Notes under the pieces: model-generated | The model's input: the letters and a program-made list of their open reading frames with translations, nothing else | What the model was told of the DNA's origin: nothing | Databases searched by the model: none | Source of the DNA: Asterias rubens | Taxonomy: Eukaryota | Direction: 5' to 3' | Length of the DNA stretch: 64,000 bases | Assembly: GCF_902459465.1 (NCBI RefSeq) | Contig: NC_047075.1 | Location: 13,764,001-13,828,000 of the forward strand | Shown: positions 10,668 through 58,846 of the stretch, piece after piece | Layout: each line of letters begins with the position of its first letter | Numbering within the stretch: position 1 is the first letter of the stretch | Position numbers and translations under genes: made by a program

Positions 10668-11724
10668 TGTAACGGAAATTAGTTTACTGTTTATTGTTTT
10701 CACTTGTGTATAATTGTTATTTTCCATCTGTGTATATATTTCCATGTGTTTAGCTTGCTACGGCTGCCGCAGCGCTTATTACAGTTGGGCGCGCGTATTT
10801 ATTTTGCATTGGGCGCTTCCGTATTTCTCACAGTGCTTACCGCGCAGTATTTGGCGTTATTTGGGCTTGTTAAATTAGCGGCGCGGGTTATACAACACAC
10901 TGCAATAGCAGCGTATAGTGCAGCGCATAATTGGGAGTATTTTATAGTGCGGTTTGGCAGCGGGAAGTTCAAGTTGTTGCTAGGTTTATTGTTTATTATA
11001 GGGTCAAGTTATGACAGATCCCAGTGACTTGTCAATTTGCTGGTTACAAGACCAGATTACTTTCTTTGTACTACTCGGCGTCACTGTATAATTTATAATG
11101 TAAACTTGCGGGATCCAGAATTATTTATATTATAATAATAGTGTGTGATCGACAGATCTCTTTTACTTCATATTCGGTAAGATAAAAACCTCTGATTCAC
11201 TTCACGTATATAAAGTGATTTTTGTTGTTTTAGTTATTAAACAATAGTTTCCCTGCTCTACGCCCGGTTAGTAACTGTTCATATAGCACCTCCTTAAGGA
11301 GAGAGCCGAGGTCCAGTAGTTGTTAACGTTTATAAGGGATTATTATTAAATATCCACGTCACCATTTATTGTAAAAATTACTGCCAATTATTTGTTGTAA
11401 ACTGTTGAGCGATTTGTGTGCATTTTTAAGGGCAAGTACTGCTCTTGGTTTATAGACGCAATAAATCCTCTCGTTTTATTATTCCATAATTTATATGTTT
11501 CCCTTGTCTATTATTCTTGCCAGAGTCCTCTGCCTTTAAATGAGGATATATTTTCCTCAAACGAACGTCCCCACAGATTAATATTCAGCTGCTCGAATAT
11601 TTATTTGTTTTAATAAACTTGCGATTTTTGGTCTTTACCAACTTTGACCAAAAGTTCTTGGTTTAAGATCGTTTCCTTTCTAATTGCATCCGAAGGGAAC
11701 AAACAAGAATATATTTCCGCCACA
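10668..11724 (+). repeat. 5' LTR of Gypsy 1
   Basis: Begins TGTAACGGAA, ends ATTTCCGCCACA, is followed by the PBS, and aligns with 20070-21213 with several indels. Confidence 0.95.
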
Positions 11725-11725
11725 A

Positions 11726-11743
11726 TGGTGTCAGAAGTGGGAT
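11726..11743 (+). promoter_or_regulatory. Primer-binding site, complementary to tRNA-Leu(CAA) 3' end
   Basis: TGGTGTCAGAAGTGGGAT, 1 nt after the LTR-terminal CA. tRNA identity is from recalled metazoan tRNA-Leu sequences. Confidence 0.85.
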
Positions 11744-12039
11744 GTTTAAAGGCAAATAAGTAAGAATTTAAGGACTAAGAGTTATAGAAATAGAGGAAAC
11801 ATTATTAAATTCACGATAACTTTACCTCAATTATTGAGCGTGAAGCGTTGGCCGGTACATTTTACAACATATAACAGTACACAGCACCTCCGTTGGAGGC
11901 GCTGTTCAGTTGTCAGTTCACACCTCCGTTGGAGGCTATATAGTCAGGACCTCCGAGGGAGGCGCTATTAATCGCGTGTAACAGAGGCGTGTGTATCATT
12001 GGATGTAGTTGGTCTATTTTATTTTTATTAGCACAATAA

Positions 12040-13703
12040 TAATGGCTAGTCAGTCTAGTCCTAGAGATGTGTCCGCCTCAAATACTGAGGCTGAAACTGT
12101 AGAAATGAGAATTAGTAAGTTGATGCGCCAGGTCGAAATAGAAGAAAGTCAGTTACAACTTTCAATTGATGAAATTTCAGAGCGCCAGCAGCAAATTGAC
12201 AAGTCCCATTTGATTAACGGTACAGACAACTCCCGCTCAATTAATAACGGGGAGGACACTGGTATAACTCATGAACCAGTTGTCAGTAGTCCTGAAAAGG
12301 GCGAAGTTTATTTTAAAGAAAGTGTTGGGAGAATTACCCATCAACCCAGCTTTTTGGCGGGGCAAGCCCGTCCATTAGCTAGCATTCCGTTTCCGTGGCC
12401 TGCAATGGGTACCAATTTAAACGGACGGAATGATAAATCCGGAGGTGTTGTAGCACCTCCGGTAGATGCAACAAGGAGGTGCTTCAAGCCTTCCTGTAAC
12501 GTGCAATCCTGACGAGGAAAGCACAGCGGTTTATTTTAAAGAAGGGGATGGGAGAAATACCAATCTATCCAGCTTTTTGGCGGGGGAAGCCCGTCCATTA
12601 GCTAGTACTCCGTATCCGGGGCCGGCAATGGGCACCAATTTAAACGGAAGGAGTGGAAGTTCTGAAGGTGCTACAACAGTACCGAGAGGTGCACTTCTGT
12701 ATATTATGGATGCGGTGTGGAACACAGTGGAAATCCATGTGGTAACACAGCTATGCTTCTGAACCGGGACAACCAAGTCCATAACCCAGAGGGGAGCAGG
12801 CGTTTTAATGGGGCTACTGGACGCCCTAACATAACGCCTGATCGTTTTGATGGTAAAACGCCCTGGAAAGACTATCGCTGCCATTTTGAGGCTTGCAAAT
12901 TAGCCAATGGTTGGGACGATAACCAAGCTGCTATATTTTTAGCAGCAAGTTTAAAAGGTTTGGCACTTAAGGTGTTAGGCTGTTGTGACATTGTTGAAGG
13001 GCAATCCAAATTACAATACAGGGGATTGCTTAAATCATTGGATGCCCAATTTGGGCCGGGCCAGATGGCAGAAAATTACTAATGGAACTAAGGTCACGCA
13101 GACAGGGTTCAAACGAAACCCTGAGAGTTAGGTCAGGCGGTAAGGGAATTGGTGATCCTTGCCTACCCTGAATTTGGTGAAGAGGGGAGAGATCGCCTTG
13201 CGCGAGCCCATTACACAGACGCTATAGAGCGCCAATCAGTAAGGGAAGGGATATTCAGGGCAAGGCCTAAAACCCTTGATGAAGCTATCAGAGCAGCAAT
13301 GGCCACAGAAAATTTTGAGAAAATGGAATCTCAAAGGGAAGTTGCAAGAAAACCAAACTTCTGCAGGGTCAGTGAAAAGAATGACGATCGAATAGTAGGC
13401 CAAATTCAAATGGTTGTAAACGCACAACTCAATGAATTCAATGGACTGAGAAATCAATATCAAAGTAGAACGTCTGAGTTTCCAGTGCAAAAGGCGTACA
13501 TGTCGTCACATCACGATTATCCAATTTGCTATAATTGCGGGGGAAGAGGATTTTTTGCGAAGAATTGTCTCTCACCAAATATCCGAAGCCTGAAAAAGTT
13601 TTCGGGAAACGAGCAACGGTTGAACCAAAGACCCGAGGGGAAACCGTACAGACAGAATTGGGGTCAAACGGGAATTTCCGAAATGCAAAAGCAGAGGGGA
13701 TAA
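12040..13703 (+). pseudogene. Gypsy 1 gag (fragmented)
   Basis: PDRFDGKTPWKDYRCHFEACKLANGW...LAASLKG capsid motif and a degenerate knuckle CYNCGGRGFFAKNC (H lost). Split across ORFs 12009, 12466, 12717 and 13149. About 12306-12430 is repeated at about 12529-12655. Confidence 0.85.
13604..13610 (+). promoter_or_regulatory. -1 ribosomal frameshift slippery site G GGA AAC (gag to pol)
   Basis: The X XXY YYZ heptamer is in the gag frame, and the overlapping ORF 13535-13972 (protease) is in the -1 frame. Confidence 0.7.
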
Positions 13704-16700
13704 AGAGCGAGTTAACGCCACCCTTTGTAAAGCCAACACAAGGTTTGTATGTTCAAGGCGTCGTTTGCACGACTAACGTTCACTTTCTTATTGACAAGGG
13801 CTCAACAGATACACTTATTTCGAGCTCTGTATTGTACAAAATTCCAGAAGAAAAACGGCCGATGCTTAAACATGATGATGTGCACGTGCGTCAGGCAAAT
13901 GGTAGCCTAATGGGTAACATGGGACCTTCCAGTTCCCGCAATATTAGGTATGGATTTCTTTTTAGAAGCTAGAGTAATTTTAGATTTTCATTCTCTAGAA
14001 CTTAATGTCAATTGAGAGAAAACAAAGTGCAAGGACCAAACCGGTTCCTCATTCTGTTACCGTGTAGTAGTAGAAACAACTATAACAGTACCCGCAGGGC
14101 ACGAAGTTGTAGTGCCCGGTTGCATTAAGACCGATCACGAAGAAGCATAGGCATGATAGAACCCATAGAAAATGGAGGGGAACTAACAAATAGAGGATTG
14201 GTGCTTGCGAGAACACTTGTCAAAACAGGACAAGGCACCGTGGGTTTAAGGGATTTTAAAAACCCAGGGGTGGACAAACGAGAAGTACGCTGTGGTATGA
14301 CAGCTGGAATTTTCACAACAGTTGACGATTTAGATATAGAGTATGTGAAGGAAAACGATCTGATTGAAATGCAAAAAGGAAATTGCGACGTTGAGGTGCC
14401 AACGCACCTCAATGACCTTTTACACCGCACTGTCAGCAACCTATCGCCACAGTATCAATCAAGAGGTGGTAAAACTGTTGACAGATTTTGGAGTTATTTT
14501 CTCAAAGGGAGACGGGGACATAGGTAGGGCTGGCTTAGTAAAATACGGCATCGATACAGGCCGCGCCCATCCCCTAAGACAAAGGTTGCGAAGACAGCCT
14601 GTTTGCAATCAAGAAGAAATCTCACGGCAGGTAGATAATCTACTTGACCGGGGTGTAATAGAAACGTCGGACAGCCCTTGGGCGTCCAATGTTGTAGTAC
14701 TAGTAACAAAGAAAGACGGGTCAAAGCGTTTTTGCGTGGATTACAGGGGTCTCAATTCTGTAACAATAAAGGATGCATATCCAGTTCCCAGAATTGATGA
14801 CACCCTTGATGCCTTTTCCGGGGCAGCATGGTTTTCAACATTGGACCTTTCCTCCGGATACTGGCAAGTTGAATAAGACAATGAGGCCAAACAAAAATCA
14901 GCGTTTGTGGTAAGAGGCGGGCTATACAGCTGGAATGTCATGCCTTTCGGTCTGTGTAATGCCCCTGCCACTTCCGAAAGACTGATGGAAAGAGTGGTTG
15001 CCGGCCTCCAATGGCAAACACTGTTAGTTTATCTTGATGACGTGATTGTTTACGGGATGCTAACCTCAAGTTAAAACCTGGGAAGTGTTTCCTTTTCATG
15101 AAGAGTGTGAAGTATCTCGGACGCGTAGTATCCGTAAATGGCATAGCCACAGACCAATACAAAGTAGAGACGATCAAAAACTGGCCAACCCCTGCAAATG
15201 TCAAAGAGGTTAGAAGTTTCTTGGGTCTCGCCTCGTACTATAGACGATTCATAAGAGGGTTTGCTGACATTGCAAAGCCGCTCCACAGTCTTACAGAAAA
15301 ATCCAGAGACTTTGTATGGACGAAGATTGTGAGAGGTCTTTTGAAACCCTCCAGACACGCTTACAAGAGGCGCCAATACTTGCTTATTCTCAATCTGAGG
15401 GACAATACATCCTTGACACAGATGCGAGTGGTGTTGGTATCGGTGCTGTACTTTCACAAGAACAGCAAGGGACCGAAAGAGTAATCGCATATGCCAGCAG
15501 AACACTTTCAAGGCAAGAACGAAATTATTGCGTAACTCGAAGAGAACTCCTTGCAGTTTTATATTTCCCAAGGCATTTTAAACAATACCTTTACGAAAAC
15601 AGTTTAATAGTCATGGTTTATGGTTCCCTTCGCTGGCTAACAAATTTCCGAAATCCGGAAGGTCAGCTGGCCAGATGGCTAGAGATTATTGCCGAATATG
15701 ACTACACTATCATTCATAGGCCAGGATTGAAGCATGGGAATGCGGATGGTCTATCGAGAAAACCCTGTCGCCAGTGCGGTATGCTCTCAAACGAGGAAGT
15801 TTAGATGACACAAGTGAAACTAGAGGTTCTGAAGAAAGGTAAGAGGCACATGCCAGAATTACATCCACAGTTCCCAGCATTACACGCGTGAATTTAAAAG
15901 AGGCGCAGTTAAATGACCCTTCTATCGCATGGATACTTGAAGCTAAATCTCAATCAGTAAATAGGCCTGCTTGGGAAACAATTGATCTTACATCAATTAT
16001 AGTAAAGACATACTGGAACCGTTGGGACCAATTGCACATTTTGAATGGGGCACTGTACCACAGATGGGAAAGTGACGATGGTAAACAAATACGTCGGCAA
16101 GTGGTATTGCCCAAATCATTGACAGATACCGTGATAATAAAATCACATGCAGGAAAAACAAGTGGACATCTTGGAGTAAAAAGAAAGTTTTCCCGAGTGA
16201 AGTTCCACTATTTCTGGTACGGAATGAGGGCCGATGTCCGATCGTGCTTAAGAAAATGTGAGAGGTGTGCAAAGAGAAAATCGCCACCAAAGCGAAATAG
16301 AGCACCCCTCCAACAAATGAAAGTTTGCTTTCCAATGCAGAGAGTTGCGTTAGACATTATGGGACCCATACCCGAGACAGAAGATGGTAATCGCTGGATT
16401 TTGGTAGTGGGTGATTATTTCACAAAGTGGATAGAGGCTTATCCACTTGTTGACACAAGAGCCGAAACTGTCGCAAAGAAATTGGTGACAGAATTTATAT
16501 GTAGATTTGGAGTCCCCTCAGAGTTACACTCCGATCAAGGGAGGAATTTTGAGGCAAATGTGTTTGCCGGGGTATGTGATTTGTCAGGCATACACAAAAC
16601 CAGAACGACTCCTTACAACCTTAAATCTGATGGGTTGATCGAGAGATTTAATAGAACTCTCATCAATATTATTGCCACTATGATAGAACCAAACCAAAAG

Positions 16701-17099
16701 CAAAAAGACTGGGATTTACAACTGCCGTATGCTACTTTTGCATACCGTTCCACCCTGCAAGAGAGTACGGGAGAGACTCCCAACATGATGATGTTAGGGA
16801 GGGAAACGTCTCTGCCAATAGATCTCATTAATGAGTTCCCAAAACATGAGTTGGGTGAAGAATTAGACTATGCAGAAGAACTTAGAGATAGAATTCAGAG
16901 TGCCCATGAGCGCGCCTCTGAACATCTTAAGGCCAGTGCAAGGAGACAAAACCAGGGGTATGACCGCAATGTCAGTGGTCGATCTTTGAAAGAGGGTGAT
17001 TTTGTATGGGTTTATAACTTTGCTAAGAAGAAGGGCGTCTGCCCAGACGTTGTGTATCGTTTACAAAGAAGCAAACACTCGAAGAAACGGGTCATATGA
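13604..17099 (+). pseudogene. Gypsy 1 pol (protease, RT, RNase H, integrase) with many frameshifts and stops
   Basis: PR FLIDKGST (DTG mutated); RT RFCVDYR.LN, DLSSGYWQV, YLDD near 15030; RH DTDASGVGIGAVLSQ, YCVTRRELLA; IN H-x-H...C-x2-C, LDIMGP, HSDQGRNF, GLIERFNRT. Confidence 0.95.
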
Positions 17100-17460
17100 C
17101 CGTTTAAAGATATATGAGGGGAGCCCATTAAGGCGTGGACCCAGCCCAATTTGGAAGTAGAAGTTCTCACTCCGCCGACAGCGCCAACCAATGGCACGGA
17201 ATTAGAAGATGTATATGTTAATAATTCCTTTCCAGAAGAAGGAGAGCGGATAGAAGTCCCTCCCTTTGCAAATGACTTAGATAATGGACCGATCCCTACA
17301 AATGACTTTGACGTGAATAATGTCAGAGGTTCACTCCATGATCAGTCATTGGCACCTCGGGGCGAAAGATACCCACAGAGGAGACATCATTTGTTACCAG
17401 TAAGGTACCGATAGAACAAACGGTTAAACAAAGGAAATTTTCTCATTTTGTGTTTTCCAG

Positions 17461-18392
17461 ATGGATTGTCCCACTCCAGATGATCTGTATCCCACTAGGC
17501 TTATAAGATGCCGCAAGTGCCCAAAGGTTTTCATGCAGATGAGAAGTCTGCACCGCCATTTGAAGACCGCCCATGGGCCAAAGCAATGGTCCTGCCAGCA
17601 GTGCAAATTTATTTGCGGCAGACGAGATAATCTTCGGAGGCACTATGGTAGGGTCCACCCTTCCAATATGGATGAGCTGGCCGGCATCACCCCTCAGGCG
17701 GAAGTCGCCAGCGGCCATAACCAGGACGGTCGGCAACGCCAGTTTACAGAGAAGCGCTGGGGCACCCAAGCGAGTCAGCAGTTACAAAGGCCCCAAGCGC
17801 CAAGAAGAGGCAGCAACCCACCAGCTACCCAGAGCCAATGCCCCGAAGTGTCTCCAACTTTGCAGCCAGTAGTAACTTCATGCCCGCCGCCGACCTCAGC
17901 AGAAGGAAATCCAATGTTGGCCAACCCTCTCACCAGTTTGTGGCTTCCCGGCGACGAGTTGCTGGTAGACGAAATGTCACTTTCACCTACCGCCTCCTTG
18001 AACTTCTTCTCGGAGGAATTGTACTCCGAGGGACATTGGATGGAGATACGTCCGAGTTTAGCCATTCCCGACGAATCCCCCAGCACCATCACATCCCCCC
18101 AACAGTCACAACCTTTCCCGACGAGGCCCCCAACACCATCACATCCCTCCCAACAGTCACAACCGCAGCACCACCAACATCCGTTAATGCGACGACCACC
18201 CCACAACCAATAGAGCAGCAGTCTATTTCGTTCGAGTTGGAAAATGGCACTACCTTGACGACGGCCAAGAAGGTTAAGAAGAGTCTTCTTGACGAGGCTT
18301 TAGCAGGGAAGATTGTCAGAGTTACAGAGACGGTCACAAAGACATATATGACAGGCAAATTGAGTGAACTCAAAACGCGTTCGGGTGTATAA
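17461..18392 (+). CDS. Accessory ORF3 of Gypsy 1: two C2H2 zinc fingers plus Pro/Thr-rich tail; single -1 deletion near 18095
   Basis: CRKCPKVF...LHRHLKTAH and CQQCKFIC...LRRHYGRVH. The ATG directly follows TTTTCTCATTTTGTGTTTTCCAG. ORFs 17461-18213 and 17838-18392 join if one base is restored in the first copy of a 2x ~45-bp repeat. Confidence 0.7.
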
Positions 18393-20530
18393 CTTAAATG
18401 AGGAATAACTTGTATTCAAACTTTTAATTTCCGCGGATTTCATCCAACTTTAATTTTGAGACTGTTCTTTTATTAAGGCTTTGGTTAAGAGCGTTTAAAG
18501 CGTTTTGTATTTTTCTTGACCATCGAGAAGTGGAGGTAGTATAAATAATGTTGTATATAATTTCTGCTCAGCAGTAAACTAATTGTGTTTTTGTTCATGT
18601 GTTTTTGGCCTTTTTGAACAGAGACTGTTCAGGCCTCGATTGGGGCTGTGTAACGGAAGTTTGTTTACTGTTTATTGTTTACCTTGTGTATAATTGTTAT
18701 TTTCCATCTGTGTATATATTTCCATGTGTTTAGCTGGCTACGGCTGCCGCAGCGTTTATTACAGTTGGGCGCACCATGGGTGCACGCATGCTTCAGCGAT
18801 CTATGCAGTTGGGCGCGCGTATTTATTTTGCATTGGGCGCTTCCGTATTTCTCACAGTGCTTACCGCGCAGTATTTGGCGTTACTTGGGCTTGTTAAATT
18901 AGCGGCGCGGGTTATCTTTTTTTTAGGGCGCTTTTACAACACACTGCAATAGTAGCGTATAGTGCAGCGCATAATTGGGCGTATTTTCTAGCGCGGTTTG
19001 GTAGCGGGAAGTTCAAGTAGTTGCTAGGTTTATTGTTTATTGTTTAAATTATAGGGTCAAGTTATGACCGATCCCAGTGACTTGTCAATTTGCTGGTTAC
19101 AAGACCAGACCCCTCAGGCGGAAGTCGCCAGCGGCCATAACCAGGACGGTCGGCAACGCCAGTTTACAGAGAAGCGCTGGGGCACCCAAGCGAGTCAGCA
19201 GTTACAAAGGCCCCAAGCGCCAAGAAGAGGCAGCAACCCACCAGCTACCCAGAGCCAATGCCCCGAAGTGTCTCCAACTTTGCAGCCAGTAGTAACTTCA
19301 TGCCCGCCGCCGACCTCAGCAGAAGGAAATCCAATGTTGGCCAACCCTCTCACCAGTTTGTGGCTTCCCGGCGACGAGTTGCTGGTAGACGAAATGTCAC
19401 TTTCACCTACCGCCTCCTTGAACTTCTTCTCGGAGGAATTGTACTCCGAGGGACATTGGATGGAGATACGTCCGAGTTTAGCCATTCCCGACGAGTCCCC
19501 CAGCACCATCACATCCCCCCAACAGTCACAACCTTTCCCGACGAGGCCCCCAACACCATCACATCCCTCCCAACAGTCACAACCGCAGCACCACCAACAT
19601 CCGTTAATGCGACGACCACCCCACAACCAATAGAGCAGCAGTCTATTTCGTTCGAGTTGGAAAATGGCACTACCTTGACGACGGCCAAGAAGGTTAAGAA
19701 GAGTCTTCTTGACGAGGCTTTAGCAGGGAAGATTGTCAGAGTTACAGAGACGGTCACAAAGACATATATGACAGGCAAATTGAGTGAACTCAAAACGCGT
19801 TCGGGTGTATAACTTAAATGAGGAATAACTTGTATTCAAACTTTTAATTTCCGCGGATTTCATCCAACTTTAATTTTGAGACTGTTCTTTTATTAAGGCT
19901 TTGGTTAAGAGCGTTTAAAGCGTTTTGTATTTTTCTTGACCATCGAGAAGTGGAGGTAGTATAAATAATGTTGTATATAATTTCTGCTCAGCAGTAAACT
20001 AATTGTGTTTTTGTTCATGTGTTTTTTGGCCTTTTTGAACAGAGACTGTTCAGGCCTCGATTGGGGCTGTGTAACGGAAGTTTGTTTACTGTTTATTGTT
20101 TACCTTGTGTATAATTGTTATTTTCCATCTGTGTATATATTTCCATGTGTTTAGCTGGCTACGGCTGCCGCAGCGTTTATTACAGTTGGGCGCACCATGG
20201 GTGCACGCATGCTTCAGCGATCTATGCAGTTGGGCGCGCGTATTTATTTTGCATTGGGCGCTTCCGTATTTCTCACAGTGCTTACCGCGCAGTATTTGGC
20301 GTTACTTGGGCTTGTTAAATTAGCGGCGCGGGTTATCTTTTTTTTAGGGCGCTTTTACAACACACTGCAATAGTAGCGTATAGTGCAGCGCATAATTGGG
20401 CGTATTTTCTAGCGCGGTTTGGCAGCGGGAAGTTCAAGTAGTTGCTAGGTTTATTGTTTATTGTTTAAATTATAGGGTCAAGTTATGACCGATCCCAGTG
20501 ACTTGTCAATTTGCTGGTTACAAGACCAGA
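17690..20530 (+). repeat. Near-perfect tandem duplication: 17690-19109 and 19110-20530
   Basis: Junction ...AAGACCAGA|CCCCTCAGG. I see only two substitutions and one T indel between copies. The unit covers most of ORF3, the PPT and the first ~460 bp of the 3' LTR. Confidence 0.95.
18649..19109 (+). repeat. Partial (5' part) copy of Gypsy 1 LTR created by the duplication
   Basis: TGTAACGG start after GAACAGAGACTGTTC...GATTGGGGC; breaks off at the duplication junction. Confidence 0.9.
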
Positions 20531-21213
20531 TTACTTTCTTTGTACTACTCGGCGTCACTGTATAATTTCCAATGTAAACTTGCGGGATCCAGAATTATTT
20601 ATATTATAATAATATCGTGTGATCGAAAGATCTCTTTTACTTCATATTCGGTAAGATAAAAACCTCTGATTCACTTCACGTATATAAAGTGATTTTTGTT
20701 GTTCTAGTTATTAAATAATAGTTTCCTTGCTCTACGTGATATATCGGACACCTCACGGAGGCCCGCTTAGTAACTGTTCATATAGCACCTCCTTATAGAG
20801 AGAGCCGAGGTCCAGTAGTTGTTAACGTTTATAAAGGGATTACTATTAATTATCCACGTCACCATTTATTGTGAAAATTACTGCCAATTATTTGTTGTAA
20901 ACTGTTGAGCGATTTGTGTGCATTTTTAAGGGCAAGTACTGCTCTTGGTTTATAGACGCAATAAATCCTCTCGTTTTATTGTTCCAGAATTGATATCTGT
21001 TTCCATTGTCTATTATTCTTGCCAGAGTCCTCTGCCTTTAAATGAATATATATTTTCCTCAAACGAACGTCCCCACAGATTAATATTTAGCCGCTCGAAT
21101 ATTTATTTGTTTAAACTTGCGATTTTTGGTCTTTGACCAAAAGTTCGTGGTTTAACATCGTTTCCTTTATAATTGCATCCGAAGGGAACAAACAAGAATA
21201 TATTTCCGCCACA
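20070..21213 (+). repeat. Complete 3' LTR of Gypsy 1
   Basis: TGTAACGG...ATTTCCGCCACA, homologous to 10668-11724. Confidence 0.95.
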
Positions 21214-57300: not shown

Positions 57301-58610
57301 TTTATGTTTACATAGGGGTCTTTGCACCAGGCGCGCCACTACTCTATACTGCCCCTCTTCGGTTTCTTCGCAAACTAGACTGAAAACTGTGACTTTCACT
57401 TTGAATAATTCTTCAAAGTGATGCAGGTCTTCTAAACAGACACCTTCAGTTGGGCGCTTTTTCATTTCTTTGGTGTATCTATCTACGCGGTACATGGTGC
57501 GGGTTTCTAGGGCGGTCGCAGAGTAGCCTTGTTTTAGCGCGAGACATCTAAACAAACAAAAATTATCCCGGTATCTTGCACCGGAGTTACGACTTCTGAT
57601 TAGATTGTTTAAACCCACATTGTTTGAGATGTAATCGGGTAGTTCATGTGGCGCTGCACCTATGTAGAACAAGGGCATTTTGTTTGCATAAACGGTGACG
57701 TTAGTGATATCGGCAACGACCCACTTTGTGTCTGGACGCGTGTGTAGGGTGTGTTGTAGTACGTCCATATCGCATACTTTTTGGACGAAGTTTTCAAAAT
57801 CGTCTTCTGAAGCTATAGTGATGGGGTGGGTTAAAAAAAGGCCGTTGTTAAAACTAGAATGGTAATAACGCAATTCGCCAGACTCTATATTTCGTAAAAC
57901 AAACCCAAAGGACAGGTTCAGTTTTACTCTACACGAAAAAGTTGGGAAAATACCCCTTAACCCCTCGACCAGTGGTACGCCATTTGTGAGCAAGGGTTGG
58001 CGCCGTCCCCAAACGTAAATTGTAAACATCTTGAGTCTGACAGCGGTACAGATAATGGGTCCTAATACTACCCCAGTTTCTACGATAAAGAGATATCATC
58101 TCATTATCCCTATTGTTATTATTTTGGGGAATCGAAAACGCGATTGAGTCTTCGGGAACTAGACTGGCGGCTTGGGGCGGCGCAGGTTGTGAATTATGTG
58201 GAAGAGGGTCATTTCTCTGGGGTTGGCGAGAGTCGTGTCTTTTTACATGGCGCTTAAAACTTACTGAGTTGGTAAATGTTTTTCCACATGTGGTGCAATC
58301 CCTCTTATACCCAGAATGAACTTCTTGGTGCTGTTTTAGAGTGTATTTTCGGGCACATGACTTTCCACAAGTATCACAAGTAAACCTATTACTGGCAAGA
58401 CCGTTAGTTTTACTTAAATACGACCTATTACTAACCGACTTTTTCTTCTCACGCCGGAATGTAGGCTCTTTGTCAGGGGTTCTCCGTCTCTTCGATCTTG
58501 CAATCTTCTTTCCACGTGACGGCGCCTTGTCAGGTGTTCTCCGTCTCTTGGGTCTCACGAAGTGTGTTCTTTTGCCAGATGATACATTTGCACCCTTTCC
58601 TTTCTGCGGC
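57301..58610 (-). pseudogene. Polinton/Maverick-like gene: basic repeats, two C2H2 fingers and protein-primed PolB N-terminal region; frameshifted and truncated by Gypsy 2
   Basis: CDTCGKSC...LKQHQEVH and CTTCGKTF...FKRHVKRH; after a frameshift near 58000, KLNLSFGFVLRNIESGELRYYHSS.NN...RPDTKWVV..ITNVT.Y..K...IG...LPDYI.NN...DNFCLFRCLAL, which I recognise from invertebrate Polinton pPolB N-termini. Confidence 0.7.
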
Positions 58611-58846
58611 TGTAAATAAAATATAAAATAAAAATAAAATTAAACAGTGAACTCAGAATGATCAGAGATATATAGTTGTTACTTTTTTGAAATAGGTACA
58701 TAACATGTAACAAGTCTCGTACTTCACGTTAAAACATGGTAAAAATGGTTTTTCCCCGGAACACTCCCAGCCAAAATTCTGAAGAAAAAAAAAAAAGGAA
58801 AAAAAAAAAAATCCTGTAGCCGCTGTTTAAACAATAAACTCTTGTT

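Follow-up and report, generated by a model that had tools for sequence, protein, structure and literature searches.

The window, by which we mean the whole stretch of 64,000 nucleotides from Asterias rubens that was analysed, contains a decayed, near-single-copy Ty3/Gypsy LTR retrotransposon, whose features lie on the plus strand unless stated otherwise. Protease, reverse transcriptase (RT), RNase H and integrase (IN) follow one another in the Ty3/Gypsy order, and an LTR pair with TG...CA ends, a tRNA primer site and a polypurine tract (PPT) are all present. The 5' LTR (10668..11724), which differs from the 3' LTR by 37 mismatches over 1043 aligned bases, is followed by a primer binding site (PBS; 11726..11743) complementary to the 3' end of host tRNA-Leu(CAG), a site common to the window element and sister families F1-F4 and F6. 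A leader array of predicted target sites (11824..11990, eight GAGG[C/T] words, no strand assigned) precedes a broken gag with a CCHC knuckle (12042..13703) and a broken pol (13604..17414), both of which are interrupted by several frameshifts and stops. A splice acceptor made of a pyrimidine tract and CAG (17438..17460) abuts the ATG of a third open reading frame, ORF3, whose first frame (17461..18213) encodes two C2H2 fingers, the helix that follows them and a disordered linker; an internal tandem repeat (18062..18150) is the site of the frame change in the window copy, and the C-terminal domain, a short helix plus beta-hairpin, lies in the second frame (18168..18392). A polypurine-tract-like end, GATTGGGGCTG (18638..18648), resembles the tracts of the sister families and borders the first copy of the 3' LTR (18649..19109), which is shortened because 17689-19109 has been tandemly duplicated. 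The duplicate (19109..20530) contains the 3' part of ORF3, the PPT and the start of the LTR, and the full 3' LTR occupies 20070..21213. This duplication, 1421 bp at 99.8% identity, was overlooked by the earlier note on this DNA, and its LTR-to-17689 joint is also present in a contig of run X3.

The window copy is flanked by TTAC and TTTT, without an intact target duplication, and a DNA search of the genome with the window element returned its own copy, its own duplicate, one distant fragment and a few LTR pieces. The 5' part of gag contains a direct repeat (12306-12470 and 12529-12693, 81% identical), and elsewhere in the window a 236-codon frame on the minus strand (57932-58639) encodes a basic, repetitive stretch followed by two C2H2 fingers that differ in type from those of ORF3. 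Where the genome carries a pattern complementary to the PBS, ARAGORN called no tRNA at three of five loci. One tandem array (G000:C2:13.346-13.369 Mb) has 36 matches to the tRNA-Leu 3' pattern at ~190-bp spacing, with no tRNA called at the locus tested, and the 11 matches of a second array (C19:7.166-7.169 Mb) are tRNA-Leu-CAG genes.

The two-finger C2H2 frame that had been placed between integrase and PPT is present as described, spanning 250 aa (17461-18213) between the end of the integrase frame at 17414 and the PPT at 18638-18648. Its Pro/Thr-rich stretch, previously taken for the protein tail, is internal: the conserved C-terminal part continues in a second frame (17721-18392), and the true end is the helix and beta-hairpin domain. 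The duplicated unit held responsible for the frame change was given as 45 bp; the repeat units (18062-18100 and 18112-18150) actually lie 50 nt apart. A natural public record of the window family, P0009, reads without interruption from the fingers through the C-terminal domain, over 293 aa, and the ~310 aa obtained by restoring one base is therefore not the natural length of ORF3.

AlphaFold predicted both fingers at pLDDT 87-97, with high confidence extending to the helix that follows them, a long disordered linker and, at the end, a short helix and long beta-hairpin. The fingers have Cys2His2 spacing and a beta-beta-alpha fold, with recognition helices QMRSLHR and RRDNLRR in the window copy, and the nearest Foldseek rows for the finger model were DNA-bound C2H2 proteins, none at E <=0.001. 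Classical DNA-binding C2H2 pairs are joined by a TGEKP-type linker; the interfinger linker of ORF3 is mostly H-G-P-x(3-4)-C and not of that type. Pfam matches in ORF3 are confined to the zinc fingers, and the C-terminal domain, which is doubled in sea-urchin and several other ORF3 relatives, matched no fold clearly (best Z 2.4, rmsd 5.0, 49 aligned), a result that establishes neither a new nor a known fold. In keeping with the earlier claim that the protein has no signal peptide or transmembrane segment, the maximum 19-residue hydropathy was <=1.29 in all 15 ORF3 proteins. Within the linker, three short motifs are conserved among 30 ORF3 proteins (GKPRGM-like in 27, LSLSP-like in 26 and APATVS-like in seven), and a CtBP-type PLDLS/VLDLT motif is found in seven of the 30, compared with a mean of 0.5 after shuffling; the window family has neither the CtBP-type nor the GKPRGM motif. 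Two of the first three motifs may resemble stretches of the histone H3 tail. PXDLS is described as the motif of the CtBP corepressor in PMC1693901, and its presence in some families points to repression as a candidate function there.

Expression of ORF3 from a spliced RNA had been proposed from a strong acceptor at its ATG and a donor just after the PBS. The acceptor is supported: TTTTCTCATTTTGTGTTTTCCAG, 85% pyrimidine, stands directly before the ATG, and in 10 of 10 ORF3 starts examined a pyrimidine tract followed by YAG precedes the ATG at a distance of 0-32 bases. Pyrimidine content before the YAG is at least 65% in all ten and at least 75% in five, compared with 4 of 401 internal ATGs. 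RefSeq model P0004 (C24) enters an F5 copy at the acceptor equivalent to 17461, and in run X3 a single contig, at depth 11 and with 98 letters on the short side, connects 15838 with 17461 across GT..AG ends; the joints listed come from contigs of three public runs, type not on record, and depth was not used. As for the donor, the letters AA/GTAAGA exist where they had been read (GTAAGA at 11760..11765), but the site is weak (2.9 bits, own matrix) and is one of nine in the element, and 75 in the window, that score as high. It has no conserved counterpart after the PBS in the sister families, and the proposed junction of 11759 to 17461 was not recovered, as no listed joint uses this donor. The strongest donor of the element, AAG/GTAAGA (15836..15844, GT at 15839), overlaps a stop of the decayed integrase frame; none of the six sister families has a conserved donor in this linker region, and the 15839 donor is probably specific to the window family or copy. 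We considered a pol-ORF3 fusion through 15839 in the window copy and rejected it, given the stops in the in-phase upstream frame and the missing conserved donor in sister families. Candidate donors of the intact families are located in their LTRs, and among the joints listed no GT..AG joint enters the F1 ORF3 acceptor.

To place ORF3 among related elements, we examined the loci of the 29 best integrase matches and of 20 lower ones, picked by hand so that each apparent family was represented about once. When these loci are regrouped by integrase identity, 20 have at least 53%, and 16 of those carry ORF3 homology downstream of the integrase; of the 29 with at most 50%, none does. Genome searches gave 62 finger matches and 151 integrase matches in the same places, and a decayed locus picked by its fingers (integrase 41%) also has ORF3. 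On the earlier question of whether the gene always sits between IN and LTR, it recurs in that position at related loci and is not confined to the window copy. In an integrase tree of elements from the Asterias rubens genome, all eight ORF3-bearing rows fall in one 11-row clade (support 97/96), whose remaining rows are two near-copies of family F6 and a third on a long branch; F1 and F4 are sisters, as are F2 and F6. LTR pairs of F1-F6 are 98-100% identical, F1-F5 have open pol frames of 1295-1791 codons, and ORF3 is intact in young families. Exact 4-bp target duplications flank 10 of 11 ORF3-bearing sister copies, the eleventh having one mismatch. ORF3 has no ends of its own, as a separate insertion would: it is enclosed by LTR pairs that are 98-100% identical and flanked by 4-bp target duplications.

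Five unsaturated comparisons of ORF3 gave dN/dS values of 0.33 (p 1e-6), 0.26 (0.007), 0.38 (0.008), 0.39 (0.01) and 0.13 (0.001); seven near-identical pairs gave no significant signal (0-1.54), and comparisons between families were saturated or nearly so. The dN/dS check among copies suggested earlier accordingly yields purifying selection (0.13-0.39), and neutral decay in all copies is not borne out. Judged by these alignments, ORF3 is a real cargo of one Gypsy clade, under purifying selection. Outside Asterias, the Patiria relative P0003 has an ORF3 58% identical over its length, which extends the gene to two sea-star genera, and other relatives occur in the sea urchin Diadema and in Acanthaster, where RefSeq model P0032 fuses ORF3 to RT and integrase and so ties it to Gypsy pol in a second species. 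A search with the window protein alone returned only its own allele; the relatives needed alignments, and a profile of the C-terminal half gave 42 hits, ten of which were looked up for names.

The DNA that the fingers would be expected to bind can be predicted from their helices. Finger 2 of most families carries R, D, N and R at helix positions -1, 2, 3 and 6, and GAG-G was noted as the predicted site, R-x-D-N-x-x-R reading GAG, before any words were counted. With finger 2 predicted to read the 5' triplet and finger 1 the 3' triplet, the site of the window family would be GAG-G(C/T)N. Table 1 of PMC1920264, the part of that source used here, pairs the selected fingers RSDNLTR, RSDNLKV and RSDSLTR with GAG, AAG and GTG, and valine at position 6 is described there as having no strong base preference. 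In LTR plus leader, GAGG[C/T] occurred 11 times compared with 2.4 expected in the window element, 12 compared with 4.1 in F1, 15 compared with 4.1 in F2 and 14 compared with 4.8 in F4, each at p 0.003, the floor of 300 shuffles. The excess is absent in F3, F5 and F6, which have differing helices, and of 11 LTRs from elements that lack ORF3, none has a p of 0.05 or below. Among ~135 4-mers, GAGG ranks 1, 2, 2 and 1 in the window element, F1, F2 and F4, and 1 of 136 in a fifth family with the same helix, examined afterwards; it ranks 4th in F7, an LTR without ORF3 (10 compared with 5.9). The window LTR by itself is not enriched for GAGG[C/T] (3 compared with 1.7). Its leader has eight sites in 317 bp, or 25 per kb as against 2.3-2.4 per kb in the window flanks, and six of the eight form three inverted pairs, CCTCC-N3-GGAGG, at 11887, 11923 and 11950.

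Where the helix differs, other words stand out. F3 (helix RKDNLKV) is enriched for TAAGG (11 compared with 1.8) and F6 (helix RRETINR) for GTGGTT (9 compared with 1.7, fourth among F6 6-mers), while F2 is enriched for GAGGTT (9 compared with 0.7) and shares with F6 both the finger-1 helix xxQGLWR and the GTT triplet. These words of F2, F3 and F6 were picked post hoc from the LTR ranking, and pol is their sole independent test. There, against a synonymous-codon shuffle that keeps protein and codon usage, each family's own word was found in excess: 19 compared with 10.3 in F1, 15 with 4.6 in F2, 17 with 9.5 in F3, 19 with 11.7 in F4 and 5 with 1.8 in F6 (p 0.003-0.027), as set against 2 of 140 control tests at p 0.05 in 14 families without ORF3. 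No copy of the predicted GCG-GAG word is present in F5, where the ranking singles out no word either. Altogether the helix contact residues (-1, 2, 3 and 6) match the enriched word in seven of eight families (window, F1, F2, F3, F4, F6 and L107), F5 being the failure; because the families are related (F1-F4 and F2-F6 as sisters), clear helix-to-word changes number only two. L107 (G000:C1:1.986 Mb) is a short LTR element without RT and integrase, in which protease sequence runs into the finger ORF and the 3' LTR has seven GAGGGG words compared with 0.4 expected.

We consider it probable that the two-finger ORF3 protein binds a family-specific word repeated in its own element and so acts as a self-regulator of transcription or chromatin. 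The earlier reading, in which ORF3 is a DNA-binding regulator encoded by the element and no envelope, is independently supported by the agreement of helix and family word. On this model, a spliced mRNA would give rise to a small nuclear protein whose two fingers are predicted to read a 5-6-bp word, specificity would come from the density of short words, as for VANC21, the C-terminal hairpin may join several ORF3 copies on clustered sites, and short motifs in the disordered linker may recruit host cofactors. We tentatively favor a net effect that is activating or anti-silencing, because sites have accumulated even at synonymous pol positions. Selection should favor such gains only where a copy profits from being bound, and under a repressor it would favor site loss. 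The CtBP-type motif would argue the other way, and a net effect of repression or timing, although the less likely sign, accounts for a smaller part of our confidence in self-regulation.

An alternative that we hold improbable is that the target of ORF3 is the element's RNA and that the protein governs how the full-length transcript is spliced or exported from the nucleus, in the manner of Rev or of CERV from Cer1. In F1, F2 and F4 most of the words are in sense orientation and follow the likely start, a pattern that RNA binding would equally give, and in F1, F2, F4 and F6 they fall mainly on the sense strand inside the transcribed part; the inverted pairs of the window could form RNA hairpins, and Cer1 provides a precedent for a spliced 3' ORF that acts in export (PMC10309623). 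Nonetheless, the words agree with the code by which C2H2 helices read double-stranded DNA, and both strands carry them in the window leader and F3, where inverted pairs occur, so that double-stranded DNA fits as the target. Both strands are enriched at these two places, the minus strand is enriched in F2 pol as well (4 compared with 0.9, p 0.01), and ORF3 lacks the C4 loop seen in CERV.

Slightly less probable still is binding to words on the new cDNA, with ORF3 tethering it to chromatin or carrying it into the nucleus and so acting at integration. A copy with sites in both LTR and pol would itself gain from such binding, and the conserved short linear motifs could bind chromatin factors; against this, ORF3 has its own acceptor and ATG outside the Gag-Pol polyprotein, which leaves particle entry unexplained, and CtBP-type motifs fit transcription control (PMC1693901). 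We give little credence to a third explanation, that the words are host-factor sites or by-products of LTR duplication or base composition and that ORF3 is kept for another job, such as a corepressor decoy. F5 shows no match, the words are short, LTRs often contain duplications and independent changes are few, but the enrichment holds under both the dinucleotide and the synonymous-codon control, is seen in two separate regions and follows the residues of the helix, and families without ORF3 do not show it. The idea that ORF3 merely rides along, as a fragment of host sequence or a separate insertion in neutral decay, is largely refuted: the window copy and several others are broken, four of the 20 close loci have no ORF3 and related modules occur in host genes, yet the gene is intact in young families with dN/dS well below 1, has no ends of its own and remains 58% identical over its length between two sea-star genera in P0003.

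Self-regulation through repeated words has its closest counterpart in the VANC proteins of Arabidopsis VANDAL transposons, for which binding and loss of DNA methylation were shown experimentally and VANC21 motifs are arrayed in one orientation at high density, according to the parts of PMC5735166 consulted. As with VANC in that account, a transposon-encoded, sequence-specific factor is accompanied in its cognate element by many short family-specific motifs, mostly in one orientation, and protein and target diverge together between families. The two differ in that VANC belongs to plant DNA transposons, whereas the present element is an animal LTR retrotransposon with a C2H2 pair and sites that extend into pol, and in that binding is here only predicted. 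CERV of the C. elegans element Cer1, as described in the portion of PMC10309623 used, is a 517-aa protein encoded by five exons with a C4-type cysteine loop, is required for RNA export and has no homologues outside nematodes. Like ORF3, CERV is encoded by a 3' ORF of a Ty3/Gypsy element and is not an envelope; it is translated from a spliced mRNA and regulates Cer1. Unlike it, ORF3 is 250-480 aa long, carries two C2H2 fingers and matches a DNA code. ORF3 shares with errantiviral and retroviral env its position between pol and 3' LTR and an acceptor of its own, but, unlike env, is without a signal peptide or transmembrane segment. The Tas protein of foamy viruses is reportedly an element-encoded nuclear factor from the 3' region that acts on its own LTR; Tas and other transactivators of complex retroviruses are said to belong to vertebrate retroviruses and not to be C2H2 proteins, whereas the window element is Ty3/Gypsy and its ORF3 a C2H2 pair. 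ORF3 types known from rotifer LTR elements comprise env-like, GDSL, DEDDy, coiled-coil and TM forms (PMC5408684 and PMC13524379, in the main text of each), and neither 'zinc finger' nor 'C2H2' appears in either main text. We found no published Gypsy family with a C2H2 third gene or with helix-word covariation among the paper listings searched, which include few subscription journals or Repbase reports. The element is Ty3/Gypsy, is not env-bearing and is a member of neither the VANC nor the CERV family; by analogy it would work most like VANC, and ORF3 is likely a family-specific, self-targeting DNA-binding regulator of the kind that the plant VANC proteins represent.

Modules of the ORF3 type are also found in host genes of this genome, in which one such gene product is matched at 99% identity by a named Asterias protein, as befits a sea-star host. 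An 898-codon exon (L101:5487-8180, minus strand; G000:C3:20.25 Mb) encoding the C-terminal domain and three finger pairs of the ORF3 type is embedded in a UBX-domain gene, which presumably has the layout of UBXN4, between a coiled-coil exon and the UBX exons, with a splice acceptor and no pol nearby. It is an alternative last exon, with named isoforms in Asterias, Acanthaster and Patiria (P0019-P0021). Two more host-like sets each combine one finger pair with the C-terminal domain: a pair from Acanthaster and Patiria (P0033 and P0034), and a 237-aa gene (L105:2620-3330, P0018, with P0025 and P0055) whose locus contains no integrase. The RRDNL helix is mostly retained in the units of the UBX gene and in the Acanthaster/Patiria pair. 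A tree of 34 finger pairs (68 columns, long branches, with P0032 and P0050 omitted for pattern mismatch) puts the host copies in three places and does not give the direction of capture; the species range of the two kinds suggests host capture of the module, named host versions being confined to sea stars and element-type ORF3 reaching sea urchins.

Animal Ty3/Gypsy elements have been treated as simple, borrowing the transcription factors of their hosts, and C2H2 proteins have been seen as a host weapon. Here the C2H2 gene is carried by the element, and its target is readable from the protein and found in the element; what is new is that finger helices predict words and that the enriched word changes where the helix changes. 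A broader reading, which we put forward as a possibility short of our main proposal, is that an echinoderm-wide Ty3/Gypsy lineage encodes a re-programmable C2H2 transcription factor, its helices and words co-evolving per family, down to synonymous pol codons, as a private switch, and that sea-star hosts took the module three times, kept the GAG-reading helix in two and may police the same elements with the resulting proteins. VANC-like self-targeting becomes directly testable in animals, with the family pairs F2/F6 and F1/F3 as natural specificity controls, and conserved host genes with the same module bear on the origin of host zinc-finger regulators.

Other reading frames accompany some of these elements. 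In the leaders between PBS and gag, examined at L089, L087, L107 and L081, F6 and L107 have two short ORFs (54-61 aa) and F4 has one (95 aa), each encoding a hydrophobic segment followed by basic residues; none is present in the window copy. Small membrane ORFs are reported for MDG1-group elements in the part of PMC11952523 consulted, and the leader ORFs of F6, L107 and F4 recall them but have almost no ectodomain and no myristoylation motif. At G000:C5:3.14 Mb, RefSeq model P0022 joins BCAS3-like exons to an ORF3 copy.
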